Shown one piece after another: positions 11,275 through 32,376 of a stretch of 34,495 nt of DNA. The notes beneath the pieces are model-generated. The model did not search any database and was not told the DNA's origin. It saw only the letters and a list, made by a program, of their open reading frames with translations. The DNA is from a bacterium (GTDB taxonomy: Bacteria; JAHJDO01): the NCBI GenBank assembly GCA_023129655.1, contig JAGMBN010000002.1:1-34495 (forward strand), given 5' to 3'. Position 1 is the first letter of the stretch; the number at the start of each line of letters is the position of its first letter. The position numbers and the translations under genes were made by a program.

Positions 11275-11308
11275 CCGTGAACTTATTTAAAAGAAGGAGG
11301 GATAGGAA

Positions 11309-12528: not shown

Positions 12529-12549
12529 GCTGAATTTAAGGATAGCAAA

Positions 12550-12858: not shown

Positions 12859-12864
12859 GAAATT

Positions 12865-13500
12865 ATGATGTTATCCGGTCTGATAGGTAAAAAAGTAGGA
12901 ATGACGCAGATTTTTGGGGAGAAGGGAGAGGTTATCCCTGTTACTCTGATTGAAGCCGGACCATGTGTGGTTCTGCAAAAAAAGGCGTCAAAACAGGAAG
13001 GGTATGATGCTGTTCAGTTGGGTTATGAGGATATAAAAGAAAAGAAATTAACAAAATCCTTAAAGGCTAAATTCAGCAAGATAAAAGTAGAGCCTAAAAG
13101 ATATATAAGAGAATTCAGAGTAAATAATCCTGATGATTATGAAGTAGGGCAGGAACTAAAGGTTGATATTTTTGAAGAAGGAAGCTTTATTGATGTCTGT
13201 GGGACTTCCAAAGGAAAAGGATTTGCAGGTGTAATAAAGCGATGGGGATTTAAAGGAGGTCCAGCGTCTCATGGCTCAAGGTTTCACAGAGCGCCCGGCT
13301 CCGTAGGCGCCAGCGCTTCTCCTTCACGTGTATTTAAAGGACAGAAATTGCCGGGGCATATGGGAAACAAGAAAGTTACTATACAAAGCCTTGAAATTGT
13401 AAAGCTGGATAAAGAGAAAAATTTATTAGTTATAAAGGGAGCTGTCCCCGGAGCGAGTAGGGGAATTGTGATAATAGAAAAGGCTAAAAAGAAGAGTTAA
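12865..13500 (+). CDS. rplC: 50S ribosomal protein L3
   Basis: 211-aa ORF with [10 protein letters not shown]...[11 protein letters not shown] and [22 protein letters not shown]. Confidence 0.96.
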
Positions 13501-14138: not shown

Positions 14139-14179
14139 AACATTCATACCAACAAATGAACGCAAAAGAATACAAAAAT

Positions 14180-14225
14180 GTCATTGCGAGGAGTTCCGAA
14201 CGTTTTCGGGACGACGTGGCAATCT
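14180..14225 (+). repeat. GTCATTGCGAG...GCAATCT palindromic-type repeat element (long copy)
   Basis: GTCATTGCGAG at 14180-14190, an inner CCGAA/TTCGG hairpin, and GCAATCT at 14219-14225. An inverted shorter copy lies at 15992-16020. Confidence 0.6.
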
Positions 14226-14261
14226 TCTTAATGTATGGGGATTTCAATGTTAGCCTGTAGT

Positions 14262-14302
14262 GGCTTGATTTATCAAGCCCGTGGGTCGGATAAATCCGAC
14301 CC
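14262..14302. repeat. Two tandem perfect hairpins (GGCTTGA-TTTA-TCAAGCC and GGGTCGGA-TAAA-TCCGACCC)
   Basis: 7-bp stem at 14262-14279 and 8-bp stem at 14283-14302, each with a 4-nt loop and no T-tract. The second shares its stem with the post-tuf hairpin. Confidence 0.6.
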
Positions 14303-14377
14303 CTACTGTAGACAAAGGGAGCAAAAGGGGACTTAAAGATTTTGAAGAGGATTATTGCTATCCTTATCTTTTAGATT

Positions 14378-14620
14378 ATGTTTAAATATACTACCTATTT
14401 TGAAGAAGATGTGATGACCAAGCGACCATATATAAAAAAAGAGTGGTGCGAAAGAGTCGTCTCTTCAAGGCAATTTATAACGCTTCAGCCTGACGGCAGG
14501 TTACGGTTCTGGGCTCAGATTCCGGAATATGGCAACAGGTATCTTCGTGTTGTAACTTTATCAGACCAGCATACAATACTTAATGCTTTTTTTGACCGCA
14601 ATTTTAAAGGAGGGCAATAA
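14378..14620 (+). CDS. Small toxin-like protein paired with a DUF2283 protein (DUF4258-like candidate)
   Basis: 80-aa ORF. The more likely start is the ATG at 14414 (MTKRPYIKKEW...). The conserved-looking core is EWCERVV...QPDGRLRFWAQIPE..NRYLRVVTL.D..TILNAFFDRNF. The stop lies 2 nt before the partner gene. The family name is tentative. Confidence 0.45.
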   Translation: MFKYTTYFEEDVMTKRPYIKKEWCERVVSSRQFITLQPDGRLRFWAQIPEYGNRYLRVVTLSDQHTILNAFFDRNFKGGQ

Positions 14621-14622
14621 AA

Positions 14623-14835
14623 ATGAGACTAAACTATCATCCTGATACAGATTCGCTTTATATACATCTTGTTGAGCGTTCTGGTGTAGAAGCCCGTGAA
14701 GTCGCGCCTGGAGTTATAGTTGATTTTGACTCGGAAGGTAAATCTGTTGGGATAGACATTGAGCATGCGCAAAATATTATAGACCTTAGTTCTATTCAGG
14801 CAGATTCTTTGCCTGTAAAAATTAAGACTGCATAA
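14623..14835 (+). CDS. DUF2283-family protein (putative antitoxin)
   Basis: 70-aa ORF. MRLNYHPDTDSLYIHL....VIVDFDSEGKSVGIDIEHA matches the remembered DUF2283 pattern (YD.e.DalYi.l ... D.d.dG.ivGiEi). Confidence 0.6.
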   Translation: MRLNYHPDTDSLYIHLVERSGVEAREVAPGVIVDFDSEGKSVGIDIEHAQNIIDLSSIQADSLPVKIKTA

Positions 14836-14925
14836 GACGATTAGGATAAAGAAAAAGGTAGATGATTCAAGTATACGATATTAATAAAAAAGAAGTTGAT
14901 TATATTGGGGTAATTTTTAAGTAAA

Positions 14926-16041
14926 ATGAGAAAGATGGAAACAAAGAAGACAAATAATATTTTTAGGTTAATTCTGTTTGGAATTTTGGCGGTTGGATTT
15001 ACAGGCCATTGTTTTGCCGTTGAAAAAAATCTAGAAGCTTTTGAAAAGGCAAGACAAGATGCATTGCTTTCTCGCTGTAAGTCAAATATAAAGCAGCTAT
15101 TAGCTTGCATAAAAATGTATGCACAAGATTATGATGGCAGGTACCCGGACAAATTATCAGATTTATCTATCTATTTAAAACGACTTGATACATTTACCTG
15201 TCGAGCAAGCAAGGATAAAATTACCAGCAAAAAAGAAATAGATACTAAAAGCAGTTATGAATATAGAGGAGCTGGACTTACCAAAGAAATTGGGGAGAAA
15301 GACCCGGATAAAATCATTTTGATAGAGAAAAATTATAATCATACTATCGATGGAAAACTTGTTCGCTGTGTTGGCTATGCTGGTGGGTATGTGGGGATGG
15401 AGCAACAAAAGATGGAGACAAAAGTATATTCTCCCAATTATAGGTCTGCTCAGGAAATAGAAGAATCATTGAAAAAGGCACTAAAGCCTGATGAGAGAAG
15501 AAAAATTGTTTGTGATAAAAAACGGAACTATTTAATCATTACTGACTCAGTGAGCAACCACAAAAAGATAAAAGAAGCGATAACAAAACTTGACCAGCCT
15601 AAACCTCAATTCCGCATTAAGATTACTAGCGTCAAGACAAAAGAGAATGGAGAACCTGTTAGAAATTCGCAAGAGGTTGTTGCTCTTCTTGATACGCCTG
15701 CAAGCATAAATATTGGAGATAAGGATTTTCCTCCATATTGTCATTATGAAGTCACACCTTCTTTAACAAAGGAAGGCATGATTTTGCTAAAGATGGATTA
15801 TGAAATGGCAGTAAATAAAGGAAAAATAACTGGTGGCAAAAGGCAGTACATCCTAAAAGATGGAGAGACAAAAGAGCTTAGCGGTCCACCAGGAAGCAAA
15901 AGAAAGACTATAATTTTTATAGAAAAAATAAAAGCAAAGAAGTCCACAACTGTAACCGACGAAAATATTATTTATCTCAAAGACAAAAACGAGATTGCTT
16001 CGCCTTCGGCTCGCAATGACAAAAGGAATATTTCCAAGTGA
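14926..16041 (+). CDS. Secreted chimeric protein: pseudopilin-like (DUF1559-type) module plus secretin N-domain-like module
   Basis: 371-aa ORF with a signal-peptide-like N-terminus (FRLILFGILAVGFTGHCFA|VEK). RCKSNIKQLLACIKMYAQDYDGRYP resembles the post-helix segment of type II pseudopilin/DUF1559 proteins. YRSAQEIEESLKKALKPDERRKIVCDKKRNYLIITDSVSNHKKIKEAITKLDQPKPQFRIKI resembles a secretin N (NolW-like) domain. The stop overlaps the rplW GTG start (GTGA). Confidence 0.45.
   Translation: MRKMETKKTNNIFRLILFGILAVGFTGHCFAVEKNLEAFEKARQDALLSRCKSNIKQLLACIKMYAQDYDGRYPDKLSDLSIYLKRLDTFTCRASKDKITSKKEIDTKSSYEYRGAGLTKEIGEKDPDKIILIEKNYNHTIDGKLVRCVGYAGGYVGMEQQKMETKVYSPNYRSAQEIEESLKKALKPDERRKIVCDKKRNYLIITDSVSNHKKIKEAITKLDQPKPQFRIKITSVKTKENGEPVRNSQEVVALLDTPASINIGDKDFPPYCHYEVTPSLTKEGMILLKMDYEMAVNKGKITGGKRQYILKDGETKELSGPPGSKRKTIIFIEKIKAKKSTTVTDENIIYLKDKNEIASPSARNDKRNISK
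15992..16020 (-). repeat. Inverted short copy of the GTCATTGCGAG...GCAATCT element
   Basis: AGATTGC at 15992-15998 and CTCGCAATGAC at 16010-16020 are exact reverse complements of GCAATCT and GTCATTGCGAG in the copy at 14180-14225. The element is embedded in the last codons of the 371-aa ORF (..EIASPSARNDK..). Confidence 0.6.
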
Positions 16042-16328: not shown

Positions 16329-17159
16329 ATGGCAGTAAAAAAACATAAACCAACAACTAAGAGCAGAAGATTTGCAATACTGCCGGCGTTTGATGAGATC
16401 ACAAAGAGCAAGCCGGAAAAAAGTCTGACTATGTCGTTGAATAAAAAGAGTGGGCGCAATGTTAGAGGTAAGATTACTGTAAGGCACAGAGGCGGCGGAC
16501 ATAAACGGAAATACCGCATTATTGATTTTATGAGGAGCAAAAAAGATATAGAGGGTAAGATAGTTTCAATTGAGTATGATCCAAATAGAACGAGCAGAAT
16601 TGCTCTAACGCAGTATCCTGACGGTGAAAAGAGATATGTAATTGCGCCGTCAGAGATTAGAGTTGGGGACAAAATTCTATCAGGAAAAACAGTAGAAATA
16701 AAAGTGGGGAATAGTTTGCCTTTAAGAAATATACCTGCAGGTACTCTAATTCATAACGTGCAATTGCATAAGAATAAGGGCGGTCAATTAGCGCGCAGCG
16801 CTGGAGCAAGCGCTCAACTAATGGCAAAAGAGGGAAACTATGCTAATGTAAAACTTCCGTCAGGGGAGATTAGAGCCATTCTTTTAGATTGTACAGCTAC
16901 TATTGGGCAGGTTGGTAATATTGATCATGAAGGCGTATCAAGCGGTAAAGCGGGGCGAAAGCGCTGGTTAGGCAGACGTCCAAAGGTACGGGGTGTTGCT
17001 ATGAATCCTGTTGATCATCCTCTTGGAGGCGGAGAGGGAAAGAGCGCGGGAGGAAGACATCCTGTTTCCAAGTGGGGACAGCCTGCTAAAGGATTTAAAA
17101 CGAGAAAAAAACGTAAAGAATCGGATAAATATATAATAAAACATAGGAATAAAACATAA
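16329..17159 (+). CDS. rplB: 50S ribosomal protein L2
   Basis: 276-aa ORF with [26 protein letters not shown] and [18 protein letters not shown]. Confidence 0.97.
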
Positions 17160-17456
17160 ATGTCCAGATCAATTAAAAAAGGACCGTATTTAGACCGGAA
17201 GCTGGTAAAGAAAATGGAAGAAGCTAAAAGAACCGGCAATAAAAAGATTATTCAAACATGGTCACGCAGTTGTACTATTATACCTGATTTTGTTGGTCAG
17301 AGCATTGGTGTGCATAATGGGATGAAGTTTATACCGGTGTACATAACAGAGAATATGGTAGGACACAAACTTGGCGAATTTTCCCATACACGGACATTTC
17401 GCGCGCATAGCGGACAAAGATCTAAAGTAGAAGAAAAAGGGGCGAAAAAGGGATAA
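17160..17456 (+). CDS. rpsS: 30S ribosomal protein S19
   Basis: 98-aa ORF with [11 protein letters not shown] and [31 protein letters not shown]. Confidence 0.97.
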
Positions 17457-17462
17457 GATATT

Positions 17463-17870
17463 ATGTATGCAAGAGCAAAAGCGCGATTTATCCATACATC
17501 TCCAAGGAAGTTAAGGGATGTGGTAAATCTTATTAGAGGCAGAGACGTGATTAAAGCGCTCAATATTCTTAAACTTGTTTCAAGAACGTCTACTCCTATT
17601 GAAAAAGTTTTACGCTCAGCAGTAGCAAATGCTGTACAGCTGACAGATATAAACGAGGAGGATTTATATATTTCCAGTATTACAGTTGATATAGGCTCTG
17701 TTATGAAGAGATTTAGGGCTGCGCCAATGGGACGTGCAGTCAAAATAAGAAAAAGGACGAGTCATATTAATATAGTATTGCAGGATAAAATTAAAAAGAA
17801 AATATTAAAAACCGAAGAAGTAAAAAAGGAAATAAAGAATGGGACAAAAGGTTCATCCGGTAGGGTTTAG
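17463..17870 (+). CDS. rplV: 50S ribosomal protein L22
   Basis: 135-aa ORF with [23 protein letters not shown] and [21 protein letters not shown] Lys-rich C-terminal tail overlaps rpsC. Confidence 0.93.
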
Positions 17871-18462
17871 ATTAGGAGGGATAAAAACCTCACAGTCATG
17901 TTGGATTGCAAAGAAAGATTATGCGTCTCTTATTGCGGAGGATGTGCAGATACGTAAATATATTAAGAAGAATTTGGAACATGCAGGTGTAGCCGCTATA
18001 GAAATTCGCAGGTCGTTAGGAAAGGCGGTTATAAATCTTCATACTGCAAGGCCTGGAGTTATTATTGGCAGAAAAGGCGCTGAAATTGATAAATTAAGAG
18101 AGAGCCTGGAAAAGATGACGAACAAGCAAATCGTTGTAAATATTGTGGAAGTTGAAAATCCGGCGATAAATGCGCAATTAGTTGCAGAAGGAGTAGCTGT
18201 GCAGTTGGTAAAGAGGGTTCCGTTTAGAAGAGTAATGAAAAAAGTTATCAGTTTTGCAATGCAGTCCGGAGCGCAGGGCATGAAAATAGTTTGCGCCGGG
18301 CGTTTGGGTGGAGCTGAGATAGCGCGAACCGAATCGGCAAAGGATGGGAAGATACCTCTGCATACTTTAAGAGCTGATATAGATTACGGTTTTGCGGAAG
18401 CGCATACTACATACGGGTTAATAGGCGTGAAGGTGTGGGTATGCAAAGGGGAGATTATATAA
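17839..18462 (+). CDS. rpsC: 30S ribosomal protein S3
   Basis: 207-aa ORF with [14 protein letters not shown] and [29 protein letters not shown]. Confidence 0.97.
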
Positions 18463-18463
18463 G

Positions 18464-18892
18464 ATGGCATTAATTCCAAAACGCGTCAAACATAGAAAGG
18501 TGCACAGAGGGCGTATGCAGGGAATATCCTGCAGGGGGCATAATGCGAGTTTTGGAGAATATGGTTTAAAGGCTTTAGAATGCGCGTGGATAACCAGCCG
18601 TCAGCTTGAAGCTGCAAGAATTGCAATGACAAGATACATCAAACGAGGCGGCAAGGTTTGGATAAGAGTAGTTGCTGACAAGCCTGTAACAAAAAAACCG
18701 GCTGAGACCAGAATGGGAAAGGGAAAAGGAGCGCCTGAGTACTGGGTTTCAGTTATCAAGCCTGGCAGGGTTTTGTTTGAGCTGGGCGGTATTTCAGAAG
18801 ATTTAGCGAGGCAGGCTATGAAACTTGCATCAACAAAACTGCCGATAAAAACACGATTTGTGATCAGAGGAAAATTAGGGGTAACATCATAA
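18464..18892 (+). CDS. rplP: 50S ribosomal protein L16
   Basis: 142-aa ORF with [15 protein letters not shown] and [19 protein letters not shown]. Its stop overlaps the next ATG (TAATG). Confidence 0.97.
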
Positions 18893-18912
18893 TGAAGGTT
18901 AGTAAGTTTAGA
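18891..18912 (+). repeat. Left copy of a perfect 22-bp direct repeat (AATGAAGGTTAGTAAGTTTAGA), a copy of the rpmC initiation region
   Basis: Identical at all 22 positions to 27003-27024. It contains an ATG plus 6 further codons (MKVSKFR). Confidence 0.9.
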
Positions 18913-21900
18913 AAAAATAATATAGGTGACAATAGAATGATCATCAAAAGAATAATCACATTAGTCAGTATAGCGCTTCTATTTTTCTGCGCAGCAGCCT
19001 TTAATTTATCAGCCGAAGTAGTACAAACCGATACAAGCATAAACAGTTTTAATCCCCCACCAAAAAGCACGTTGAATGTAACATCAGAAGGCAGCATATC
19101 AACCATGCAAGCAGATTCATCAGGCAGAGTTGCTCACTGGAAATTTGATGAAGGCAGTGGAACTGTAGCTTATGATTCTGTTGGTACTAATCATGGAGCA
19201 ATACAAGGTGCCACCTGGGTTAGCGGTGTAATTGGTGGTGCGTTGAGTTTTGATGGCATAGATGATTATGTTAACTGTGGTAGTGATAGTAGCTTAGATT
19301 TTGGTGACGGAACTGATGACTTTCCGTTCTCTTTTGCTGCTTGGCTAAAACGAGATAGTAATACAGTTATTCTTTCTAAATATGATACCTCAAATTATCC
19401 AGGTCCCCTTAGCCAGCAATATTCGCTTTCTGCTCGTCTTAATAAATTCACGGTTAGTATATTTGATACATCTGGAGATTATAGAAAAGGGATAATAACA
19501 ACTAATACATTTGATTTAAACTGGCATCATTTAGTAGCAACTTATGATGGTAGTAGTACAGTTGCCGGGCTTAACTTATATGTAGATGGCATTAAGCAAG
19601 CAGTTGACGTAATATATGATGATCCTCGGTATGTAGCTATGGAAGTTACGAGTGTTTCATTTAAAATAGGATCTTCTATTGATTCAGTGGGAACACATCA
19701 TTTTTTTGATGGCATAATGGACGAAGTCGCAATCTACAATCGCGCACTAGCTCCATCAGAAATCCGACAACTTTATATGAAAGACGAAAAAGGAGTGCCT
19801 CAAAATTGGAGTCTTTCACCGGATGACCCAGCACATCCATGCAACAATTCTTCAGATCCGGTAAATATAACCAACGGTGCTCTGACTAAAGTAGAACGTG
19901 ATATCTATATTCCTGCCAGAGGTATCCCCACATACATAGAGCGGGCATACAACAGCCGCAATACATATGACGGTCCATTTGGTTATGGCTGGACGTTTAA
20001 CTACAATACCAGTTTGACAGAGAATGCCGGCTTAGATGTAACGTGGACAGACGAAGATGGCAGCTTGTTATTCTTTGATGAAGATAACGGCTCTTATGCC
20101 AGCCCAAGCGGCTGTTATGCCACTTTAACCAAAACTGATAATATTTTCACTCTGACCCAAAAACACGGCATCAAGTATATCTTTGAAAATCAGGACACTG
20201 ATGCCAGCACTTATGAATTAAGCAGGATAGAAGACCCCAACGGCAATGCCATAACATTAACCTACAGTGGTGGCCTGTTAACCAAGCTAACTGATCCGTC
20301 CAATCGGGATCTTATCTTTACATATTCAGGCAACAGGATTGCATCTATCGCAGACGCAGATAATAGGACGGTTTTCTATACTTATGACGTTGAAGGCGAT
20401 TTAGTCAAGGCAATAGACGCTGATGGCAAAGAAACCACTTATATTTACACAGGCCACAATATCACTACTGTTACTGACCCGGAAGGACATCAATGGCACT
20501 GGGCATATGATGAAAATGACAGGTGCATCAAACAAACAGATGATCTCGGTCGTGAAATGATCTTTGATTATGATTTTATCTCACGCACAACAACCTTAAC
20601 AAACGAAAAAGGCAATGAGACAATATATGTATTTAATCCCAACGGTTTTATTGACCAGATAACAGATGCGTATGGCGACAGCACAATCTATACATGGGGC
20701 GAGGATATAAACCGCAGCGGTATAATTGACAACAACGGTAACCAGACCAAATTTACTTATGATGAGAACGGCAATCTAATCCAAACAGAAGACGCTTTGG
20801 GTAATATCACAACCTATACCTATGAACCTGTTTATAATTTAGTCGCTTCAGTTACAGACGCAAAGGACAACACCACTACCTACGACTATGACACAAAGAG
20901 CAACCTGACCAAAATCACAGATGCTTTGGGCAATGAGACCGCATTTACCTACGATACCTATGGCCAGATGAAAACCATGACCGATGCCAATAACCACATT
21001 ACCAGTTTTGTTTATGACACTTACGGCAATCTGACTAATACAACCGACGCTCAGGGGAACCCGACCGCTTTCACCTATGATATACTCGGCAACAATACCT
21101 CAATCACTAATGCCAATAACCACACCACGAGTTTTACGTATGACCAATTGAGCAGACTAACGCAAATAACATATCCGGATAATACTAAAGCTGCCTACAC
21201 ATACGATGCTAACGATAACTTAATTACCTTTACAGATCCAAATGACAACACCACTACCAACACCTACAACGAATTCAATCAGCTGTCCGCAGTTACAGAC
21301 GCCTTGGGTCAAACCACCAGTTCAACCTATGATGAAGTCGGCAACCGAATAACTGTAGCTGATGCCAAAGACAATATAACCTCATATGTCTACGATAAAG
21401 TAAACCGCTTAATTAAAACGACAACTGCGCTAGGTAAAGAAAGCAGTTTCACTTACGATCCTGTAGGCAACCAGCTCGCAGTAACAGATGCCAAAGACAA
21501 CACCACAAGCTATACCTATGACTTGCTCAATCAGCTGACCCAGATAAAATATGCTGATAACAGCACAGTAGATTACACATACGACGAGCTTGGCAGAAGA
21601 ACATCCATGGCAGACAGTACAGGAACAACAACATACGAATATGACAATCTGAACCGCGTAGTCTCTGTAGGAACAGGGCTTGCCCCTGTCCGTTACGATT
21701 ATGACAAGGTCGGCAACAGAATCTCCATGACAGATCAGAATGAAGGCGTAACAGGTTATCAGTATGATGAATTAAACAGACTTGTCTCTTTAACAGCTCC
21801 GAACGGCAAGATGACGAATTATTCTTATGATTCAGTTTCCAATTTAACGAATATGAACCTGCCGAATAACACGCAGGTAAATTATCAGTTTGACAATCTG

Positions 21901-24054
21901 AATAGGCTCCTAAATCTGACAAATAAAAAGAATAGTGGAGATAATATCTCCTCATTCAATTATGAATATAACTTAGCAGGCATGAGAAACAAGGTAATGC
22001 TTGCGGATGGAAGCTATATTGAATATGAGTATGATGATTTGAACAGGCTTACAAAGGAAGCAAAGTACGATCCACAGAGAAATGTCCTTTATTCCAATAC
22101 CTACGAATTTGATTCAGCAGGAAACAGGTTAAAGCTGACCAAGCTGGTTCATGGAACTCTGGAAGAGAAAAGTTTTGAGGATGATTTTAACAGGAGAAAG
22201 TTGGGAGATAATTGGCAGGTTGTAGACGGCAGGTGGAGAATAATAGGAAGAAGATGGCTGTTTGGCTGGGCGAGAAACAAGGGTGAAGTTATTTACAACA
22301 GTGAAGACAGCATTGGTAACTTTGAAGCGGAAGTGGACCTTAGCAGAATATATTTGAGGTATAAAAGAGCTCAGTTGGCAGGTATCAGTTATCAGGGGGC
22401 AGAAGGAAGAAGAGTTGCAGGAGTAAAAGGAGAGTTAAAGAAGTATCTGGAGAAGAAGAAAGTCAAGAGAACGATAATTATATGGAAATGGAAGAAGGTA
22501 AAAATCTGGAGATGGTACAGATGGGTCAGGTATCCAGTAAAGAAAACATACTGGAGATGGAAATATCATTGGAGAATTAAGAGGCAGGTTAGTTATGTAT
22601 TAGGACATTATGAAGAAAGCACTCTTGTTGAGGATGCTGTATTTACAGAAAAGACAAAGAGACCTGTATTTAGTAAGAGAATAAAGGTAAAGGTAGAGGA
22701 TGAAAAGGCGGAACTGTTTGCGAAAGAGAACGGAGATTGGGTAAAAAAGATTGAGTTTGTATATCCAAGCACAGAAGATGGAAAAGTTGGGTTATTTGTT
22801 CATGGCAAAAGAGTTGCATATGCAAGGTTTGATAATTTTAAACTGACATATCAGGTCGGGACTCTGCCACAGGAAGAAATCATCAACTACGCTTACAATG
22901 AAGAGAATCAGCTTCTTACCGTTGACAACGGACAGGGGCAAGCCCTGTCCCTACAATACGATGACAATGGAAATCTAGTAAAAAAAGATGATAGTCAAGG
23001 TGCAATAGATTATTCGTGGGATTATGAGAATAGATTGGTTGGCATAGATTATTTGGATGGAAGTTCTGATAGTTACACTTACGATGGAGTAGGTAAGCGA
23101 ATACAAACGAGTGAGGACGGAATTGTTACTAATTACTTGTATGACGGATTGAATTGTATAATTGAGCAGGACAATACAGGTCTAACAACTGCTAGTTATG
23201 TGCGTGGATTAGGATATAGCGGAGGGATTGGGTCGATAGTTAGTAAGCAGACACCAGTAAACGGTAAACAGTATTACTATTATGATGGAATAGGCAATGT
23301 TGTCAATCTTGCTGACAACTGTGGACTGACAACTGATAACTTTGCTTACGACGCATACGGCAATATTCTTAATAGTGCAATCCCAAATCCGCATGGCTTC
23401 TCAACAAAAGAATATTCTCGTCGGTCAGGATTAAGCTATTTTGGCGCTCGCTATTATGACTCTCGGATTGGCAGATGGACGCAGCCGGATCCATTAGGCA
23501 TGGTAAACGGTCCGAATTTGTATCTATATGTGAATAACAACCCGATTAACAACATAGATCCTCATGGTCTTATGCTCAGGAGGCTTAAGAATCTTTGGGA
23601 TATTAGTGGATTTGGAAGGGCTAGAAAAAGCTCCTTTAGAATTAGAACTACTGTTGTCACAAAAACTAATGCCACAGGAGGAAAAGCTTCCCAAAAGACG
23701 AAAGGATGTAGCACCAAGTCAACAAGTAGTAGTAAAGCGTATTGGAAAGGATTTGGTGGGAGTCTGAAAGATCAAGCATGGTCAATGACACATCCGTTTG
23801 CTTCAGGAGCATACAAAAAGAGCGCATTAGGACAATCTGCAGGTGCTGGTCGTTTTACTAAGTACGGAACAAGAGTCGCTATGGGAACAGCGGGAGTTGC
23901 TACAGCTGGTTATTTCGCAGCTCCTTATATAATAAAGAAAATTGCCCCTCTCTTAATTGTAGGAGCTATGGAACTGGCAACAGGAACAATGCCTCCTGTT
24001 GTTTATACGATAAGCAATCAAGTACGAACTGTAATACAAATGGTTATTAAATGA
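18892..24054 (+). CDS. RHS/YD-repeat polymorphic toxin with signal peptide, LamG-like lectin domain, an intra-shell jelly-roll insert and an unassigned C-terminal toxin tip
   Basis: 1720-aa ORF. The signal peptide is MIIKRIITLVSIALLFFCAAAFNLSAEV; the native start is possibly M16 at 18937. The LamG-like region (about 19126-19776) includes ALSFDGIDDYV...WHHLVATYDG...LYVDG...FDGIMDEVAIYNRAL. Dozens of YD repeats follow (e.g. YTYDANDNLITFTD). The RHS core ends YFGARYYDSRIGRWTQPDPLG...YLYVNNNPINNIDPHGL at 23557-23571, followed by a 160-aa tip at 23572-24051. Confidence 0.9.
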   Translation: MKVSKFRKNNIGDNRMIIKRIITLVSIALLFFCAAAFNLSAEVVQTDTSINSFNPPPKSTLNVTSEGSISTMQADSSGRVAHWKFDEGSGTVAYDSVGTNHGAIQGATWVSGVIGGALSFDGIDDYVNCGSDSSLDFGDGTDDFPFSFAAWLKRDSNTVILSKYDTSNYPGPLSQQYSLSARLNKFTVSIFDTSGDYRKGIITTNTFDLNWHHLVATYDGSSTVAGLNLYVDGIKQAVDVIYDDPRYVAMEVTSVSFKIGSSIDSVGTHHFFDGIMDEVAIYNRALAPSEIRQLYMKDEKGVPQNWSLSPDDPAHPCNNSSDPVNITNGALTKVERDIYIPARGIPTYIERAYNSRNTYDGPFGYGWTFNYNTSLTENAGLDVTWTDEDGSLLFFDEDNGSYASPSGCYATLTKTDNIFTLTQKHGIKYIFENQDTDASTYELSRIEDPNGNAITLTYSGGLLTKLTDPSNRDLIFTYSGNRIASIADADNRTVFYTYDVEGDLVKAIDADGKETTYIYTGHNITTVTDPEGHQWHWAYDENDRCIKQTDDLGREMIFDYDFISRTTTLTNEKGNETIYVFNPNGFIDQITDAYGDSTIYTWGEDINRSGIIDNNGNQTKFTYDENGNLIQTEDALGNITTYTYEPVYNLVASVTDAKDNTTTYDYDTKSNLTKITDALGNETAFTYDTYGQMKTMTDANNHITSFVYDTYGNLTNTTDAQGNPTAFTYDILGNNTSITNANNHTTSFTYDQLSRLTQITYPDNTKAAYTYDANDNLITFTDPNDNTTTNTYNEFNQLSAVTDALGQTTSSTYDEVGNRITVADAKDNITSYVYDKVNRLIKTTTALGKESSFTYDPVGNQLAVTDAKDNTTSYTYDLLNQLTQIKYADNSTVDYTYDELGRRTSMADSTGTTTYEYDNLNRVVSVGTGLAPVRYDYDKVGNRISMTDQNEGVTGYQYDELNRLVSLTAPNGKMTNYSYDSVSNLTNMNLPNNTQVNYQFDNLNRLLNLTNKKNSGDNISSFNYEYNLAGMRNKVMLADGSYIEYEYDDLNRLTKEAKYDPQRNVLYSNTYEFDSAGNRLKLTKLVHGTLEEKSFEDDFNRRKLGDNWQVVDGRWRIIGRRWLFGWARNKGEVIYNSEDSIGNFEAEVDLSRIYLRYKRAQLAGISYQGAEGRRVAGVKGELKKYLEKKKVKRTIIIWKWKKVKIWRWYRWVRYPVKKTYWRWKYHWRIKRQVSYVLGHYEESTLVEDAVFTEKTKRPVFSKRIKVKVEDEKAELFAKENGDWVKKIEFVYPSTEDGKVGLFVHGKRVAYARFDNFKLTYQVGTLPQEEIINYAYNEENQLLTVDNGQGQALSLQYDDNGNLVKKDDSQGAIDYSWDYENRLVGIDYLDGSSDSYTYDGVGKRIQTSEDGIVTNYLYDGLNCIIEQDNTGLTTASYVRGLGYSGGIGSIVSKQTPVNGKQYYYYDGIGNVVNLADNCGLTTDNFAYDAYGNILNSAIPNPHGFSTKEYSRRSGLSYFGARYYDSRIGRWTQPDPLGMVNGPNLYLYVNNNPINNIDPHGLMLRRLKNLWDISGFGRARKSSFRIRTTVVTKTNATGGKASQKTKGCSTKSTSSSKAYWKGFGGSLKDQAWSMTHPFASGAYKKSALGQSAGAGRFTKYGTRVAMGTAGVATAGYFAAPYIIKKIAPLLIVGAMELATGTMPPVVYTISNQVRTVIQMVIK

Positions 24055-24527
24055 AAGAGTATAGATACTCAACTATAGAAAAAGTAAAACTTGTAATAAT
24101 GGACATAGTGGTTCAAATAATAGTTGGTGCTTTTTGTCTCCTTCTTAGCCAAATTTATCTTCTTAAATATATTATATGGATACCTTTTGCATGGCTAGCC
24201 TATCATTCATTTAGGTTAACTAGTATTACATTTACGATTATCTTTAAGACAGATGATGTTGGATTAACACTAATGCGTAATAAAGACAAGATGAAAATTG
24301 CTTGGGAAGAGATTGAAAAGATTAATATAACCAGACGAAGAGGAGAGATAGTAAGGCTTGATATTTTTCATAGAATTTTGAAAAAACGGGTGCTTATAGA
24401 CGATGGTTTTAAAAACTATAAAGAGTTGTTTGAGACCATATTGATCAATGTGAAAAAAAAGAACAATAAGGTTGTTATTGTTGAAAAAACAGAAGACCTT
24501 TTTCATAAGGGAAAAAATAAATGCTAG
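24051..24527 (+). CDS. Putative cognate immunity protein (two transmembrane helices plus a small soluble domain)
   Basis: 158-aa ORF. Its start overlaps the RHS stop (ATGA). Hydrophobic stretches are LVIMDIVVQIIVGAFCLLLSQIYLL and IIWIPFAWLAYHSF. The position immediately 3' of an RHS toxin tip is the classical immunity location. No recognisable family. Confidence 0.55.
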   Translation: MKEYRYSTIEKVKLVIMDIVVQIIVGAFCLLLSQIYLLKYIIWIPFAWLAYHSFRLTSITFTIIFKTDDVGLTLMRNKDKMKIAWEEIEKINITRRRGEIVRLDIFHRILKKRVLIDDGFKNYKELFETILINVKKKNNKVVIVEKTEDLFHKGKNKC

Positions 24528-24576
24528 AAAGTAGCTTAGCATTAAAACTTGAAGATTTTGAAGAAAGAATAATGGA

Positions 24577-27000
24577 ATGAAATATATGCGTAAGTTATTA
24601 TTTACACTTAAAATTATTATAATACTTGTAATTATAGCCGTTGGATATGTTGGAGTCCGATTCCTTACTAAGTGTATGTATAAACCTGACAAAAAAGAAG
24701 GAAGTTATTTTCTTGGTAAAGTTGGAGATAGAATAATCACTTATCATTTGGACGAAAAAGGATCGCCTCAAAATGAAAGCCTGCCGCCGGACGACCCTGC
24801 TTATCCATGCAATAACGAATCCAGTATGGTGAATATAACCAACGTAGCTCTAACTAAAGTAGAACGCGATATCTATATCCCGGCCAGAGGCATACCAGCA
24901 TACATAGAGCGGGCATACAACAGTCGCAGTACATGTGACGGTCCCTTTGGTTACGGCTGGACGTTTAATTACAATACCAATTTAACTGAAAGAGCAGACT
25001 TAGACATAACATGGATGGACGAAGACGGAAGTCAGCTATTCTTCAATAAAGATAATGGCGTCTATACCAGCCCAAGTGGCTGTTATACTGTCTTAACCAA
25101 AACCGGCAATATTTTCACTCTGACCCGAAAACACGGCATTAAGTATATCTTTAAAAACAAGGATGCCGATGCAGAAACTTATGAACTGATCAAGATAGAA
25201 GATCCTAACGGCAATGCTATAACCTTAACCTACAACGTCGGTTTGTTAACTAAAGTAACTGACACAGCCGGAAGGGATATTGCCTTTACCCATTCAGGTA
25301 GCAGGATAACATCTGTCACAGACGCAGATAACAAGACGGTTTTCTATACTTATGATGTTGATGGCAATTTAATCAAGGTAACAGACCTTGACGGCAAAGA
25401 AACCACTTATATCTACACAGACCGCAATATCACTACCATCACTGACCCGAGAGGCTATCAATGGCACTGGATCTATGATGAAAATGACAGATGCATCAAG
25501 CAGATAGATGATCTGGGCAGGGAAATAACCTTTGATTACGATTTTACCTCGCGCACAACAACCTTAACAAATGAAAGAGGTAATGAGGCAATATATGTAT
25601 TTAATCCTAACGGTTTTATTGACAAGATAACTAGTGTCTATGGCGACAGCACAATTTATACATGGGACGATAATATAAATCGAACAGGTGTAATTGACAA
25701 CAACGGAAATCAGACCAAATTTACTTATGATGAAAACGGCAATTTAACCAAAACAGAAGATGCTTTAGGCAACATCACAACTTACACCTATGAACCTGTT
25801 TACAATTTAGTCACTTCAGTTACGGATGCAAAGGGCAACACCATTGCCTACGACTATGATGCAAATGGCAACCTGACCAAAATCATAGATGTTTTGAGTA
25901 ATGAGACCACCTTTACTTACGATATTTATGGTCAGATGAAAACTATGACCGACGCCAATAATAGCACGACCAATTTCGTTTATGACACTTACGGCAACCT
26001 GACTAATACAACCGACGCTCAGGGGAACCCGACCACTTTTACCTATGATATACTCGGCAATAATACCTCAATCACTAATGCCAATAACCATACTACGAGT
26101 TTTACATATGACCAATTGAGCAGACTAACGCAAATAACATATTCTGATAATACTAAAACTACCTACACATACGACACTAACGATAACTTAATCACCTTTA
26201 CAGACCCCGATAACAATACCACTACCAACACCTACAACGAATTTAATCAGATGTCCGCAGTTACAGATGCATTAGGTCAGACCACAAGCTCTACCTATGA
26301 TGAAGTAGGCAACCGAATAGCTGTTACTGATGCAAAAGGGAATATAACCTCATACGCTTATGACAAAGTAAACCGCTTAATTAAAACAACAACTCCTTTA
26401 GGCAAAGAAACCAGATTCGCTTACGACGCTGTAGGTAACAAGACCGCAGTAACCGATGTAAAAGGCAATGTCACATCATATACTTATGACTTACTCAATC
26501 AGTTAATTCAGATAAAATATGCCGATAGCACTACTGTAGATTACACATATGATGAGCTTGGCAGAAGAACGTCTATGACAGACAGCACAGGAACAACAAC
26601 TTATGAATATGACAATCTAAGCAGACTAACAAAGGAAATAGCATCGTCAGGGAAGTGGATAGCTTATACATATGATGCTATGGGTAACAGAGTGTCAATG
26701 ACAGACACAACAGGAACAACCAGTTATGAATATGACAATTTAAGTAGACTAACAAAGGAAATAACATCGTTAGGGAAGTGGATAGCTTGTACCTACGATG
26801 CGGTCAGCAACAGAGTGTCAATGACAGATCAGAACGGAGTGGTAACAACGTATCAGTATGATGAATTAAACAGACTTCTCTCTCTAACAGCTCCGGATGG
26901 CAAAGTAACAACTTACAAGAGGGAAAAGTGGACAGACACCTTTTTTGAAGGTAAACTAAATGACACAAAGCAATTTAGCATTAAAACCAGAATGGAATGA
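24577..27000 (+). CDS. Truncated RHS/YD-repeat paralog (N-terminal TM anchor plus shell repeats; no LamG, no RHS core, no toxin tip)
   Basis: 807-aa ORF. From 24751 to about 26916 it is collinear and highly similar to 19783-21822 of the large RHS gene. It lacks the DPxGL core. Its stop (26998-27000) is 3 nt before the rpmC ATG. Confidence 0.8.
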   Translation: MKYMRKLLFTLKIIIILVIIAVGYVGVRFLTKCMYKPDKKEGSYFLGKVGDRIITYHLDEKGSPQNESLPPDDPAYPCNNESSMVNITNVALTKVERDIYIPARGIPAYIERAYNSRSTCDGPFGYGWTFNYNTNLTERADLDITWMDEDGSQLFFNKDNGVYTSPSGCYTVLTKTGNIFTLTRKHGIKYIFKNKDADAETYELIKIEDPNGNAITLTYNVGLLTKVTDTAGRDIAFTHSGSRITSVTDADNKTVFYTYDVDGNLIKVTDLDGKETTYIYTDRNITTITDPRGYQWHWIYDENDRCIKQIDDLGREITFDYDFTSRTTTLTNERGNEAIYVFNPNGFIDKITSVYGDSTIYTWDDNINRTGVIDNNGNQTKFTYDENGNLTKTEDALGNITTYTYEPVYNLVTSVTDAKGNTIAYDYDANGNLTKIIDVLSNETTFTYDIYGQMKTMTDANNSTTNFVYDTYGNLTNTTDAQGNPTTFTYDILGNNTSITNANNHTTSFTYDQLSRLTQITYSDNTKTTYTYDTNDNLITFTDPDNNTTTNTYNEFNQMSAVTDALGQTTSSTYDEVGNRIAVTDAKGNITSYAYDKVNRLIKTTTPLGKETRFAYDAVGNKTAVTDVKGNVTSYTYDLLNQLIQIKYADSTTVDYTYDELGRRTSMTDSTGTTTYEYDNLSRLTKEIASSGKWIAYTYDAMGNRVSMTDTTGTTSYEYDNLSRLTKEITSLGKWIACTYDAVSNRVSMTDQNGVVTTYQYDELNRLLSLTAPDGKVTTYKREKWTDTFFEGKLNDTKQFSIKTRME
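26575..26820 (+). repeat. Tandem duplication, 2 x 123 nt, inside the RHS paralog
   Basis: Units at 26575-26697 and 26698-26820 encode MTD(S/T)TGTT.YEYDNLSRLTKEI.S.GKWIA.TYDA..NRVS twice. The large RHS gene has a single equivalent unit. Confidence 0.85.
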
Positions 27001-27002
27001 GG

Positions 27003-27024
27003 AATGAAGGTTAGTAAGTTTAGA
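27003..27024 (+). repeat. Right copy of the perfect 22-bp direct repeat (the authentic rpmC start)
   Basis: Identical to 18891-18912. Confidence 0.9.
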
Positions 27025-27231
27025 GATATGACGAATACAGAATTGGATCAAGAACTTGTTAATTTAAAACAGGAAATATTTAATTTGAATGTTCGTTCAG
27101 CTACAGGGCAATTGGAGGATCCAAAAAGGATTGGACGATTAAGAAAGGATATAGCAAGAATTAATACTGTCCTGCGAGAGAGACAGATAGAGGAAGAGAA
27201 AAGTGAAAAGGGTTCAAAAAGTGAAGATTAA
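27004..27231 (+). CDS. rpmC: 50S ribosomal protein L29
   Basis: 75-aa ORF with [47 protein letters not shown]. Confidence 0.95.
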
Positions 27232-29386: not shown

Positions 29387-31616
29387 CTGCTTGACTAAAA
29401 TAGAAAAAGCCTCAGGGAAAAATTTGTGGTATGAGACAAAATTGAGAAGGATGATGACTGGCTGGAGTTTTCCAGACAGAGATCAACTAAAAAACTATAA
29501 TATGTCATTAGAAGGGTACGAAAAATTAGAAAAAATAATAAATAATAATCTTGATGCGAAAAAGATGGTAAGTAAATTAAAGGAAATTGATGCTGAAGTA
29601 TTTTATTTTCATGCTAAATCACATAGTGGAAATGCCTGGTATAACACGAGGATTGGACATAAACATTCAGCATTGAGAGGAAGAGATTTTGTAGCCGAAT
29701 TAGTCAGAGAATGCAGGAAGAATGACATCTCTCCTGTCTGTATGCTTCAGGTAACAACTGATGTGAGAGTATATGATGAGCATTCTAAGTATAGAAAAGT
29801 GAGTAATAAAGGGATCTCTTTTAGACCATATGTATGCATAAACAATCCTTCATGGAGAAAAAAAGTTTTATCACAGATAGAAGAGATAGTTGCTAATTAC
29901 GATATTGATGGGATCTTGTTGGATGAGTTTGATTTTTCCCATTTCAACGTAAAAGATATTATGTGTTATTGTCTACATTGCCAAAAGATGTTTAGAGCGA
30001 AGTATGGTAGCGATATTCCCAAAGAACCAGCATGGGATAGTTCCCTATGGAAGCATTTTGTCTTATGGAGATATGAAGTAGTTGCAGATTTTCTTAGAGA
30101 GGTAAGAAAGCTTATTAAAAAAATAAAACCTAAAGTTTCACTTAGCCTGATATCTTACGCACACAGTTGGACTAACTGGAGCTTAGGACAGGCTACCGAA
30201 CTTTGCGCGCAGCATCTTGACTATCTTTGCGTGGATACTCATGGATGTTTAAATCTTAGCCAAACAGCTCGGTTCTTTCGTGCATTTAGCAAAGGGAAAC
30301 CAGAGCTTATAATATGGGGTACCTCCAATTTTGGTGGTGTGCGAGATAGAATGCTAATAAAGCCATATCCTGAATATATGACCGAAGCGATGACCATTAT
30401 TGCAAATGGTTTATCTTTAGGGATAGATATATGTTATCAGCCTATTCATGAGAAAGGCATTTGGGACTCCAATATAATGAAGATGAGTAGTAACATAATG
30501 AAAGAGATAGGAAAAAGAGAGAAATACCTAAGCAATGATATGATTCCCCTGTCCGATACAGCTTTATACTATTCAGAGAACTCAAGAGATTTTTACGCTA
30601 AGGATACGCCACAAAAATATTTTAATTCGTACATGGGGACATATAAAGCATTGTTAGAAAAACAGGTGCTTTTTGATATTATTGGCGATAGACACCTAAA
30701 TCAGAAGACGCTGAAGAAATATAAGGCGATAATTTTACCATCCGCAGTTTGTTTATCCAATACTCAGATAGAAAACATAACTACATATGTAGAAAACGGT
30801 GGTGGGTTAGTAGCCACCTATAAAACATCCCTATGCAATGAAATGGGAAATAAGCAGGGTAATTTTGGTTTATCTAAATTATTTGGAGTTGATTATAAAT
30901 CAGAAGGCTCCAGAGGCGATTATAAACTTTTTGGAAAGGATAATACTTCTGAGCACTGGTATTTAAAGATGGAATCCAACTGTCATATAAGTAAGTATTT
31001 GGAGCAGATCTGTGTTTTACGGACTCCAACGACTATAGTCAAAGCACTTGATGGCACTAAAGTTATGGGCGAGTTTTGTCAGGGGAAAGCTGTAGACATC
31101 TGTGGAGGGATGATGATTTCCCCATTTATAGGAAACGTTACAATACACCCTGCAGTCGTGGCTAATAAGGTTGGTAAAGGAAGAGTAGTATATATAGCAG
31201 CAAAATTAGGGAGTCTTTATGGAACAACTGGGCATCCATATGCGCAAGCACTTTTAGTTAATGCACTTAACTGGGCTACTAAAGGAGTAAAAGAAGTAAA
31301 AGTTAATGCGCCAAGGGGTATAGAGGTCACAGCATTTAAACAAATGAATGGCAAGAAAATAATTGTTCATTTAGTAAATCTTCAGTCTGTTCCTTTACGA
31401 GTTACCAACTATAGAGATAACAGTTCAGTCCAGGATATTTTACCTATACACAGTATTGAGATGAAAATTCAGATAGAAAAATGTAGAAGAGTAAAAAGTG
31501 TCTATCTTGTCCCAGGAAAAACAAAAATAGATTATAAATTTTGCAACAAAAATACCATTGAGTTGATAGTTCCGGAGGTAAAAATTCATATAATGGTAAT
31601 AATAGAATTAATTTAG
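29376..31616 (+). CDS. Putative glycoside-hydrolase-like TIM-barrel protein (GHL6-like) with a GH42-type trimerisation/GATase-like domain
   Basis: 746-aa ORF. Its start overlaps the last 11 nt of rpsH. FYFHAKSHSGNAWYNTRIGHKH...RDFVAELVRECRKNDI...VCINNPSWRKKVLSQIEEIVANYDIDGILLDEF and CYCLHCQKMF fit my recollection of GHL6. KKYKAIILPSAVCLSNTQIENITTYVENGGGLVATY fits a beta-galactosidase trimerisation-like domain. No signal peptide. Confidence 0.45.
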   Translation: MHGNCLTKIEKASGKNLWYETKLRRMMTGWSFPDRDQLKNYNMSLEGYEKLEKIINNNLDAKKMVSKLKEIDAEVFYFHAKSHSGNAWYNTRIGHKHSALRGRDFVAELVRECRKNDISPVCMLQVTTDVRVYDEHSKYRKVSNKGISFRPYVCINNPSWRKKVLSQIEEIVANYDIDGILLDEFDFSHFNVKDIMCYCLHCQKMFRAKYGSDIPKEPAWDSSLWKHFVLWRYEVVADFLREVRKLIKKIKPKVSLSLISYAHSWTNWSLGQATELCAQHLDYLCVDTHGCLNLSQTARFFRAFSKGKPELIIWGTSNFGGVRDRMLIKPYPEYMTEAMTIIANGLSLGIDICYQPIHEKGIWDSNIMKMSSNIMKEIGKREKYLSNDMIPLSDTALYYSENSRDFYAKDTPQKYFNSYMGTYKALLEKQVLFDIIGDRHLNQKTLKKYKAIILPSAVCLSNTQIENITTYVENGGGLVATYKTSLCNEMGNKQGNFGLSKLFGVDYKSEGSRGDYKLFGKDNTSEHWYLKMESNCHISKYLEQICVLRTPTTIVKALDGTKVMGEFCQGKAVDICGGMMISPFIGNVTIHPAVVANKVGKGRVVYIAAKLGSLYGTTGHPYAQALLVNALNWATKGVKEVKVNAPRGIEVTAFKQMNGKKIIVHLVNLQSVPLRVTNYRDNSSVQDILPIHSIEMKIQIEKCRRVKSVYLVPGKTKIDYKFCNKNTIELIVPEVKIHIMVIIELI

Positions 31617-32376
31617 CTGTGGAGGACACTATAATACTTTTCTCGGGAGAATGAATAAAATGCTAAAAACCATTACAAAGCCAGAACAAAAAGCATTAAG
31701 AGAATTCAAGAGGCTTTTAGGGGAATCTTTGCCTGAAGAGATAGTGCTAATGAAGCTTTTTGGTTCTAAGGCGCGCGGGGATGCGCGAAAGGATTCTGAT
31801 ATTGACGTGTTGGTTGTGACCAAAAGCGATGATTGGCGTATGTGCGATGTGGCTTGTGGTATAGCTACTGATATACTTCTTGAAAATGATATTCTAATTT
31901 CTCCAAAAGTAATAGGAAAAAGTCATTATGACTATATTAACAATTTACAAACACCGTTTATCAAAAACGTCAATAGGGAAGGTATTGCTTTATGAATGAG
32001 AAACTGCGGCAACTTATAGATGGAGAAATGACTAGAGCTGATAGTGCGCTTGTGGCTTCGAAAGTGCTTTTTGAGAAAGAATTACTTGAAGATGCTGTTT
32101 CAAGAGCGTATTATGCGTCGCTTCATGTAGCTAAAGCAGCTTTGTTGTCAAAAGGAATAGAGACATCAAGTCATAGAGGCGTGCTTTCTATGTTTGGCTT
32201 GCATCTTGTTAAGTCAGGCGATATTGAAATAGAATACGCTAAAATGTTAGCCGTTGAGAAAGAAGACAGAGAGATAGGTGATTATGATATTACGGTAGAA
32301 ATAAGTGAGGAAAGAGCCGAAGAAAGAGTAGAAGAAGCTGAAAAATTTGTTGAAAGGATAAAGAGGTTTCTAAAGC
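29387..32376 (+). other. Accessory island C inserted between rpsH and rplF (GHL6-like gene plus MNT-HEPN pair)
   Basis: rpsH and rplF are normally adjacent. Here 3.0 kb of non-ribosomal sequence separates them. Confidence 0.75.
31651..31995 (+). CDS. Minimal nucleotidyltransferase (MNT) antitoxin
   Basis: 114-aa ORF with the G-S...D-x-D motif (LFGSKARGDARKDSDIDVLVV). Its stop overlaps the HEPN start (ATGA). An alternative start is the ATG at 31660. Confidence 0.8.
   Translation: MNKMLKTITKPEQKALREFKRLLGESLPEEIVLMKLFGSKARGDARKDSDIDVLVVTKSDDWRMCDVACGIATDILLENDILISPKVIGKSHYDYINNLQTPFIKNVNREGIAL

Follow-up and report, generated by a model that had tools for sequence, protein, structure and literature searches.

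A 34,495-nt stretch of bacterial DNA (GenBank assembly GCA_023129655.1, contig JAGMBN010000002.1, positions 1 to 34,495 of the forward strand; referred to here as the window) carries an 8.1-kb island of RHS genes inserted between rplP and rpmC, which encode the ribosomal proteins L16 and L29. The island is bracketed by two identical 22-bp copies of the rpmC initiation region, and six relatives in which the two ribosomal genes are directly joined indicate that this repeat is a genuine duplication of the target site around the inserted island. As judged from sequence comparison, homologous islands lie at two sites in related organisms, this one and a pilus operon of a sister sample; at both, a long stretch of the respective target is duplicated and empty-site controls are available. 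The window comprises the ribosomal rpoBC-str-S10-spc cluster of an AT-rich bacterium (∼38% GC), whose lineage is probably Omnitrophota or near it, an assignment based on the names of the nearest named PilQ homologues only.

The 22-bp repeat, its empty sites, and the sister island

The features that define the insertion are the following.

18464 to 18892, + strand: rplP (ribosomal protein L16), recognized from its open reading frame (ORF) and translation, with PF00252 on the identical gene in L001 and L002
18891 to 18912, + strand: left 22-bp copy, made of the last 2 nt of the rplP stop codon and, from the second base, rpmC codons 1 to 7
18913 to 27002, + strand: RHS insert of 8090 bp, which none of the six relatives has, with its genes co-oriented with the operon
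27003 to 27024, + strand: right 22-bp copy, established by exact match and by the empty-site alignments
27004 to 27231, + strand: rpmC (ribosomal protein L29), intact with its native N terminus, 75 codons, PF00831

The 22-mer (AATGAAGGTTAGTAAGTTTAGA) occurs exactly twice in the window with 22/22 positions identical, no third copy was found in a scan of the window allowing up to 3 mismatches, and two matches were obtained in 0 of 100 dinucleotide-preserving shuffles. The edges of the repeat are sharp, as the bases upstream (acatcat versus aatgagg) and downstream (aaaaataat versus gatatgacg) of the two copies are unrelated. An ATG starts one base inside each copy. On the left, the rplP stop codon TAA (18890 to 18892) overlaps the ATG at 18892 as TAATG, and this ATG opens a 1720-codon RHS ORF, the first seven codons of which are those of L29. 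The left occupied junction reads ...GGGGTAACATCATAATGAAGGTTAGTAAGTTTAGAAAAAATAATATAGG and the right one ...CCAGAATGGAATGAGGAATGAAGGTTAGTAAGTTTAGAGATATGACG, with a perfect 7-nt tandem, GGAATGA GGAATGA, spanning the right joint (26994 to 27007). An earlier note on this DNA had described the 22/22 repeat, the in-frame fusion of its left copy to the RHS gene, and the right copy as the real L29 gene; its details of the repeat proved correct throughout, the seven L29 codons do open the longest RHS ORF, and the right copy heads a complete gene. The checks for mobility genes and for the uniqueness of the repeat cover the window and a few contigs of the genome. Beside its two copies in the window, the 22-mer had no match among the IMG/VR viral contigs.

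Empty sites, for which the earlier note had suggested searching related genomes, were found in six relatives, one from a scan of one genome per species (L003, with 91% amino acid identity in L16) and five from a scan of metagenomes (L083 to L087, with 83 to 90% nucleotide identity to the window). The rpmC products of these relatives are 85 to 97% identical in amino acids to that of the window. The rplP-TAATG-rpmC junction (...GGGGTAACATCATAATGAAGGTTAGTAAGTTTAGAGATATGACG) is uninterrupted in 6/6 of them, with the 22-mer present once and collinear flanks. The upstream alignment of the relatives to the window stops at 18912 (18911 in L003) and the downstream one begins at 27003. It is because these alignments overlap by exactly the 22 bp in L083 to L086 (21 bp in L003) that we read the repeat as a target-site duplication, as the earlier note had supposed; its further point, that recombination between the two copies would restore rplP-TAATG-rpmC, agrees with the junction present in all six relatives. 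The 22-mer is identical in L087 and differs at 1 to 4 positions in the other five. Since the window copies are identical to each other while the sequence varies to this extent among relatives, the comparison suggests that the insertion is younger than the divergence of the six relatives and a fairly recent event. In a phylogenetically broad set of other loci drawn from the two scans, rplP and rpmC were adjacent in 144/144 cases, at spacings of −13 to +44 nt.

The occupied structure was also recovered in ENA assembly ERZ23498859 (scaffold_651, 100% identical) and in GCA_030629405.1 (DAOVPD010000012.1; L002), which shows 18 mismatches over 16.5 kb and 0 within the island. The three assemblies probably derive from one sample or study, and the support they give from reads is not independent. 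The contigs traverse the 8-kb island unbroken, which is why it is probably single-copy. Seventeen of the mismatches in GCA_030629405.1 form a patch in rpsC (window 17880 to 18192), ∼700 bp upstream of the island, where one substitution alters an amino acid; the patch suggests a recombination import or a strain mixture.

A query with the RHS protein encoded from the left ATG (RHS1) against 5.8 billion proteins returned a single close relative, P0002, with 78% amino acid identity; the next best match had 40%, and no other protein exceeded that value. P0002 is encoded on L163, a contig of a sister sample, within an operon resembling those of type IV pili and type II secretion systems. The gene order is pilM-N-O, a gene for a pilP-like protein of 149 aa, the island, and pilQ. 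The island contains an RHS gene, an Rce1-like gene, an orphan RHS tip, and genes for proteins of 158, 75, and 223 aa, none of them a mobility gene, and its DNA is ∼84% identical to that of the window island through the RHS core. It measures ∼8.6 kb and lies between direct repeats at 2480 to 2536 and 11117 to 11173 (57 nt, 54/57 identical), which consist of the last 48 nt of the pilP-like gene followed by ATGA(A/G)GAAA, the start of pilQ. The L163 RHS ORF begins at the duplicated ATG.

Seven contigs (L165, L167 to L170, L172, and L173) have the pilP-like gene directly overlapping pilQ with no island between them, and the empty site on L165 belongs to the window's own genome. In alignments of empty sites to L163, four of these contigs (L168, L169, L172, and L173) overlap by ∼53 to 56 nt. 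Both L163 repeat copies share TAGTT in place of the CAGAT of the empty sites, as expected if the target of L163 itself was duplicated. The family comprises two islands in the databases searched (n = 2); a query with the 223-aa gene for further members returned one additional 1.4-kb contig only. In another relative (L166), a nucleotidyltransferase/HepT toxin-antitoxin pair (9362 to 9981) stands directly before pilQ, and an RHS gene for a protein of >2000 aa (16337 to 21419) follows the T2SSE gene, both being further cargo of the pilus operon.

Content of the island, its ends, and translation starts

Three + strand ORFs (RHS1, a gene for a 158-aa protein, and RHS2) occupy the whole island. Their features and those of the adjoining leader sequences are as follows.

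18892 to 24054, + strand: RHS1, 1720 codons from the L29-derived ATG (1705 from M16), identified by Pfam and by its identity to P0002
18924 to 18939, + strand: the island's own RHS1 start, with AGGTGA at 18924 to 18929, a 7-nt spacer, and ATG at 18937 (M16), followed by the signal-peptide-like MIIKRIITLVSIALLFFCAAAFNLSA
24051 to 24527, + strand: 158-aa membrane protein in the immunity position, its start overlapping the RHS1 stop (ATGA), without a Pfam match
24514 to 24580, + strand: internal leader copy, with a 19-codon mini-ORF (MLESSLALKLEDFEERIME, then a stop codon) at 24521 to 24580, the stop overlapping the RHS2 ATG as ATGA
24577 to 27000, + strand: RHS2, an 807-codon chimera without a toxin tip, with RHS repeats and DUF6531; its stop TGA (26998 to 27000) lies 3 nt before the rpmC ATG
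26953 to 27002, + strand: truncated leader closing the island on the right, with a homologue at the corresponding end of the L163 island and a match to L163 11056 to 11095
26960 to 27007, + strand: 15-codon mini-ORF, its TGA overlapping the rpmC ATG as ATGA; it contains the GGAATGA tandem

RHS1 is ordered as a Laminin_G_3 domain (2e-16), DUF6531 (PF20148, 1.9e-18), an RHS repeat/YD shell (RHS_repeat PF05593, 5.4e-96, in 17 stretches), a DPHGL motif, and a C-terminal tip, the border of motif and tip reading ...NNIDPHGL|MLRRL... in the translation. It has no PAAR or VgrG domain, and at its N terminus a segment resembling a Sec signal peptide precedes LamG. The C-terminal tip has a relative in the orphan tip of L163 and is a mosaic of the main and orphan tips of that island. 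The 158-aa protein is 38% identical (E value, 4e-28) to its 158-aa counterpart encoded after the L163 orphan tip, and from its position we take it to be a putative immunity protein. RHS1 and the 158-aa gene would together form a predicted RHS/YD toxin/immunity-like locus. RHS2 consists of ∼58 5′ codons and ∼20 3′ codons of the 223-aa orphan-immunity gene family placed around an RHS core fragment (24751 to 26915); L163 10345 to 10588 matches window 24517 to 24760, and in L171 the 223-aa family sits in the immunity position after an RHS tip. Because RHS2 is equally distant (∼84%) from RHS1 and from the L163 RHS gene, it is not a recent copy of either. A 123-nt tandem duplication (26537 to 26782) lies within RHS2.

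RHS1 additionally holds a 29-nt element resembling repetitive extragenic palindromic (REP) sequences (GTAG plus a hairpin with an 8-bp stem), present as an inverted pair 1.2 kb apart (21666 to 21694 and 22927 to 22955). Both copies are in frame, coding for VGTGLAPVR and NGQGQALSL, and match L163 (5188 to 5216, 6448 to 6477, and 8408 to 8437) at 28 to 29 of 29 nt, with one copy at 27, within flanks of only ∼84% identity. The second arm of the pair marks the start of the homology between orphan and main genes. A highly basic, tryptophan-rich stretch (KKYLEKKKVKRTIIIWKWKKVKIWRWYRWVRYPVKKTYWRWKYHWRIKRQ) at ∼22300 to 22450 (RHS1 residues ∼1140 to 1190) lies in a non-RHS insert of the shell and is conserved in the L163 RHS protein.

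Both islands end rightward in a common element of ∼45 to 60 nt (consensus, AAATGAYACAARGYAAYYTAGCATTAAAACYAGAAGATTTTGAAGA) that encodes MIQ.NLALKLEDFEE and that elsewhere forms the intact 5′ leader of orphan toxin modules, namely those of L171 and the L163 orphan. Homologues of this leader occur in L163 at 8264, 10327, and 11041 (family D3) and in L171, and none was matched among the IMG/VR viral contigs. The homology of the right end to the internal-leader region (spacer A) runs over ∼26931 to 27020, and its local alignment to 24488 to 24596 scores 48, compared with 20 ± 2.9 for shuffles, a score reached by 0/300 of them. The leader breaks off at a different nucleotide in each island, a difference that favours breakage at variable points over recombination at one fixed site. 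The left ends, which code for the signal peptides, are unrelated at the DNA level; the RHS1 N terminus showed only 30% identity to the LamG gene found after secY and 46% to the L163 RHS protein, and a source for the left end was not found. A comparison of the terminal 100 nt of both islands for inverted repeats gave a longest match of 6 to 7 nt, and 6 nt was reached by 197/200 shuffles. A candidate circle signature, in which the left end would continue the leader of the right end, was dropped after its score of 20 was reached by 178/300 shuffles; the hypothetical circle junction would read ...AATGGAATGAGG, the 22-mer, AAAAATAATATAGG. These sequences show the island to be a rearranged slice of a polymorphic-toxin array that lacks the defined termini of a compact element.

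The native rpmC Shine-Dalgarno sequence, AGGGG, lies nine nt upstream within the 3′ end of rplP and remains with the left copy. As this native context (AGGGG plus TAATG) is kept, it is possible that ribosomes ending L16 initiate the RHS ORF at the L29-derived ATG. AGGTGA-N7-ATG is predicted to function as a second start, and the signal-peptide-like segment follows M16 there, in agreement with the earlier statement that a normal-looking signal peptide begins only at that residue. The 15 extra residues of the longer product would go with the signal peptide, and either start would yield the same mature toxin. The in-frame L29-RHS fusion is plausible, not demonstrably selected. The earlier note held that the toxin had captured the translational-coupling signal of an essential gene while that signal was regenerated for rpmC. 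The capture is possible insofar as the left copy keeps AGGGG and TAATG and the RHS ORF starts with L29 codons, but RHS1 also has its own start at M16. The regeneration holds for the ATG, which was duplicated, and fails for the Shine-Dalgarno sequence, which stayed on the left while island sequence came to precede rpmC.

On the right, a single base upstream of the ATG was duplicated, so that rpmC has been separated from its native Shine-Dalgarno sequence, and the GAGGA that now stands before it is spaced too closely. Two island ORFs stop at or over its start codon, RHS2 at 3 nt upstream and the 15-codon mini-ORF in an ATGA overlap, the same arrangement that the internal leader copy uses with the RHS2 start. 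Because these ORFs end at the rpmC ATG and the native Shine-Dalgarno sequence is lost, L29 is likely made by termination-reinitiation coupled to the island ORFs. Transcription must cross 8 kb of island to reach any of the ribosomal genes downstream; within the island, no + strand terminator-like site was detected and promoter-like sites show no excess over shuffles (62 versus 61.9). A new promoter for rpmC or a terminator within the island was dropped as a candidate on these counts. No Rfam family was matched anywhere in the window.

Mechanism of insertion and comparison with known systems

The observations comprise an insertion with a duplicated target, accompanied by neither mobility genes nor inverted ends, and a homologous island whose duplication is a different one. 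Pfam searches of the island proteins returned RHS, LamG, and DUF6531 domains only, with no integrase, transposase, or recombinase, as the earlier note had stated for integrases and transposases, and no integrase was found anywhere in the window. The event is best placed in the descriptive class of insertions whose target duplications are long and variable; site-specific integration fits it poorly. We consider it rather probable, if far from certain, that break, capture, and fill-in, or a template switch, placed 8.1 kb of an RHS array 21 nt into rpmC and left the 22-bp target duplication.

We infer the chemistry of this event, the source of the DNA, the selection filter, and the translational coupling as follows. 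Two nicks or a staggered break ∼22 nt apart would open the rplP/rpmC junction, and a linear fragment of an RHS array, originating in a sister chromosome or in a co-resident relative, would be captured. Fill-in of the single-stranded flanks would follow or, equivalently, a replication fork would switch template out and back; the GGAATGA tandem that spans the right joint would then be a scar of slippage or filler. Selection would retain only a duplication spanning the TAATG overlap, leaving both rplP and rpmC whole. The start codon would lie within the duplication for this reason, as only a duplicated stop/start overlap leaves both genes whole. RHS1 would be transcribed with the S10 operon and started either by re-initiation at the L29-derived ATG or from its own Shine-Dalgarno sequence at M16. 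Hairpin-guided cleavage was rejected, the single-stranded DNA folds of both empty targets being unremarkable (z = +0.3 and +2.0).

Several points weigh against this account. No enzyme or intermediate was identified in the window and the few contigs covered. The family consists of only two islands, and all three assemblies bearing the window island apparently share one sample or study. The 22-bp duplication is below the published cut-off of >30 bp and within the 19 to 26 bp of IS1630. Lastly, both islands end in the same ∼60-nt leader, which could mean a preferred, enzyme-recognized end.

Among the alternatives, segmental duplication followed by asymmetric deletion is unlikely. A tandem duplication would join the right end of the island to the rpmC start, and a later deletion would join rpmC codon 7 to its left end, a route that has been proposed for insertions into the conserved ribosomal operon cluster (PMC8046335), that needs no dedicated enzyme, and that yields duplications of arbitrary length. 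It requires, however, a pair of precise illegitimate events both in the window and, independently, in L163, and predicts a donor copy in the same chromosome, whereas short-read contigs cross the island unbroken and the genome's own pilP|pilQ site is empty.

A little less probable is a nonautonomous transposon moved in trans by a transposase like that of IS1630/IS1634 or by a REP-associated Y1 transposase. The length of the repeat agrees with the IS1630 range cited in PMC2853133, and REP-like GTAG-plus-hairpin elements do occur in the window (12504/14285 and 21666/22927). Against these agreements, neither island has terminal inverted repeats, their left ends are unrelated, and their duplication lengths differ 2.5-fold; Y1 transposases do not make target duplications, and neither target offers a hairpin.

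Site-specific integration is improbable. The 22 bp would then be an attL/attR identity core, used by a tyrosine or serine integrase encoded elsewhere or later lost, and a sharp-edged perfect direct repeat that rebuilds the interrupted gene does resemble an att core, just as the shared right-end element could be a recognition site. The att-like core, which the earlier note had offered as its alternative, is countered by the sister island, since a fixed core cannot explain a different 56- to 57-bp repeat of pilP/pilQ sequence and the two islands have no core in common. The right-end leader is moreover cut at different nucleotides in the two, neither 22-mer nor leader was found among the IMG/VR viral contigs, on which ground a phage origin was likewise rejected, and no integrase is encoded in the island or the 34.5-kb window.

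An assembly artefact, in which a false join through the shared 22-mer placed an unrelated RHS contig in the operon, is very improbable: although these are metagenome assemblies and the three island contigs come from the same sample or study, the RHS piece would need the rpmC 22-mer at both ends, 22 bp is far below the final k-mers of common assemblers so that reads must span both junctions, the reading frame of the L29 start continues into the RHS ORF and the rpmC ATG is exactly where island ORFs end, and the analogous L163 repeat of 57 nt is imperfect, which a k-mer join could not produce.

The class termed insertion with long target duplication is known from restriction-modification units, which show long variable duplications without mobility genes and by an unknown mechanism (Nobusato et al. 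2000; Furuta et al. 2010, PMC2853133). The present island resembles the class of Furuta et al. in being smaller than 20 kb (8090 bp), a selfish or addictive type of unit at a unique site, without mobility gene or inverted ends, and also in having been found against an empty site in a relative, in a joint that can form gene fusions, and in a duplication length that varies between events. It differs in its cargo, an RHS toxin with immunity-like genes in place of restriction-modification genes, so that the proposed role of restriction cleavage does not apply, and in its targets, which are translationally coupled stop/start junctions inside operons. With regard to the working cut-off of those authors (target duplication >30 bp), the 22 bp of the window fall below and the 56 to 57 bp of the sister island above. 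IS1630, with target duplications of 19 to 26 bp as cited in PMC2853133, and IS1634 have similar or longer variable duplications, but those elements encode a transposase and have inverted ends, and the island has neither. Integrative islands with an att core are likewise bracketed by a direct repeat and leave the interrupted gene intact; here there is no integrase and no core common to two islands, and the repeat is target sequence only.

In its content, the island matches the Rhs/YD polymorphic toxin loci described previously (PMC3150448, PMC3967940), with a large shell protein, a DPxGL motif, a variable tip, a small immunity gene downstream, and further downstream orphan tips and immunity genes homologous to the main gene, as well as mosaic tips. 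In those papers, the loci change by homologous recombination within the array. Unlike them, the island here has its array inside the S10 ribosomal protein operon and carries a Sec-type signal peptide and LamG in place of a domain linked to PAAR or VgrG. Small sets of nonribosomal genes are also known to have entered the ribosomal operon cluster during evolution; in the passages that describe them, most of the insertions highlighted fall between operons and a flanking duplication is not mentioned, whereas this one lies within the S10 operon, where a stop and a start codon overlap, and has a 22-bp duplication and a toxin cargo. In the literature, we found no report of an insertion at rplP|rpmC or of RHS islands or whole arrays relocating with a target duplication.

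Other insertions in the ribosomal cluster and significance

A second insertion in the window, at rplD|rplW (14139 to 16037), contains an 80-aa ORF, a DUF2283 gene, and a gene for a 371-aa Secretin_N protein, is absent from L003 and L083 to L085, and is flanked by a 5- to 6-bp duplication, (A/G)TGAAA, of the rplW start. The rplW gene now starts at a GTG overlapping the stop of the inserted 371-aa ORF, and in this the insertion repeats the logic of the RHS island, with a duplicated start and an inserted ORF stopping on it. The idea that the two form one pilus cluster was rejected, the 371-aa protein sharing only Secretin_N with PilQ (32% over 84 aa). A third insertion, at rpsH|rplF (29387 to 32376), holds genes for a GHL6/GH42M glycosidase-like protein of 746 aa and a nucleotidyltransferase (MNT)/HEPN pair; it is absent from L083 to L085, and no flanking duplication was seen. 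L003 has a different cargo at this site (7010 to 13145; HEAT/Big_13 and PD40 proteins) together with a 17-codon remnant of the same MNT gene just before rplF, and rpsH|rplF is a recurrent landing site. Past the end of the window, the same genome (L001, 18706 to 20228) has genes for a 269-aa LamG protein and a 218-aa membrane ORF after secY, in the place of the adk-infA-rpsM of relatives (L085), and these may represent a fourth cargo insertion. The operon junctions of this lineage repeatedly accept toxin-type and surface-protein cargo.

Other features of the cluster include the fusion of rpoB and rpoC into a single 2619-codon ORF (2506 to 10365) with Rpb2 followed by Rpb1 domains. Between rpsG and tuf (10764 to 12508) there is a 78-nt gap with no fusA, which is the normal order of the lineage, as the relative L085 is collinear. 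A DUF6036/DUF2204 nucleotidyltransferase-like ORF (24 to 560) immediately upstream of rplA may be another accessory gene in the ribosomal cluster. A GTAGGG-plus-hairpin element (AGTAGGGGTCGGATATATCCGAC) follows tuf (12504 to 12526), with an inverted copy at 14285 to 14307 within the rplD|rplW insertion.

As a tentative generalization, which we regard as doubtful, RHS toxin/immunity arrays, and perhaps toxin-antitoxin cargo generally, may constitute a mobile unit without its own recombinase in this Omnitrophota-like lineage, landing repeatedly in highly expressed operons, at their translationally coupled stop/start junctions, and duplicating long stretches of target that vary in length. The duplicated start codon would drive the toxin, and the essential operon would both express and protect the island, as its imprecise loss would damage ribosomal genes.

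The rplP-rpmC adjacency is among the most invariant in bacteria, and the presence there of an 8-kb toxin island, with two more cargo insertions in the same operon, indicates that the S10/spc operon can be a landing site and an expression platform. The two islands, with duplications of 22 bp and 56 to 57 bp and without mobility genes, add polymorphic toxins to the restriction-modification units for which insertion with long target duplication had been described, and the paired occupied and empty sites in co-occurring relatives provide material for studying the insertion mechanism. The rplP|rpmC site is also a natural test of translational coupling against insertion, in which one copy of the ATG heads a toxin predicted to be secreted and the other heads essential L29 without its native Shine-Dalgarno sequence.

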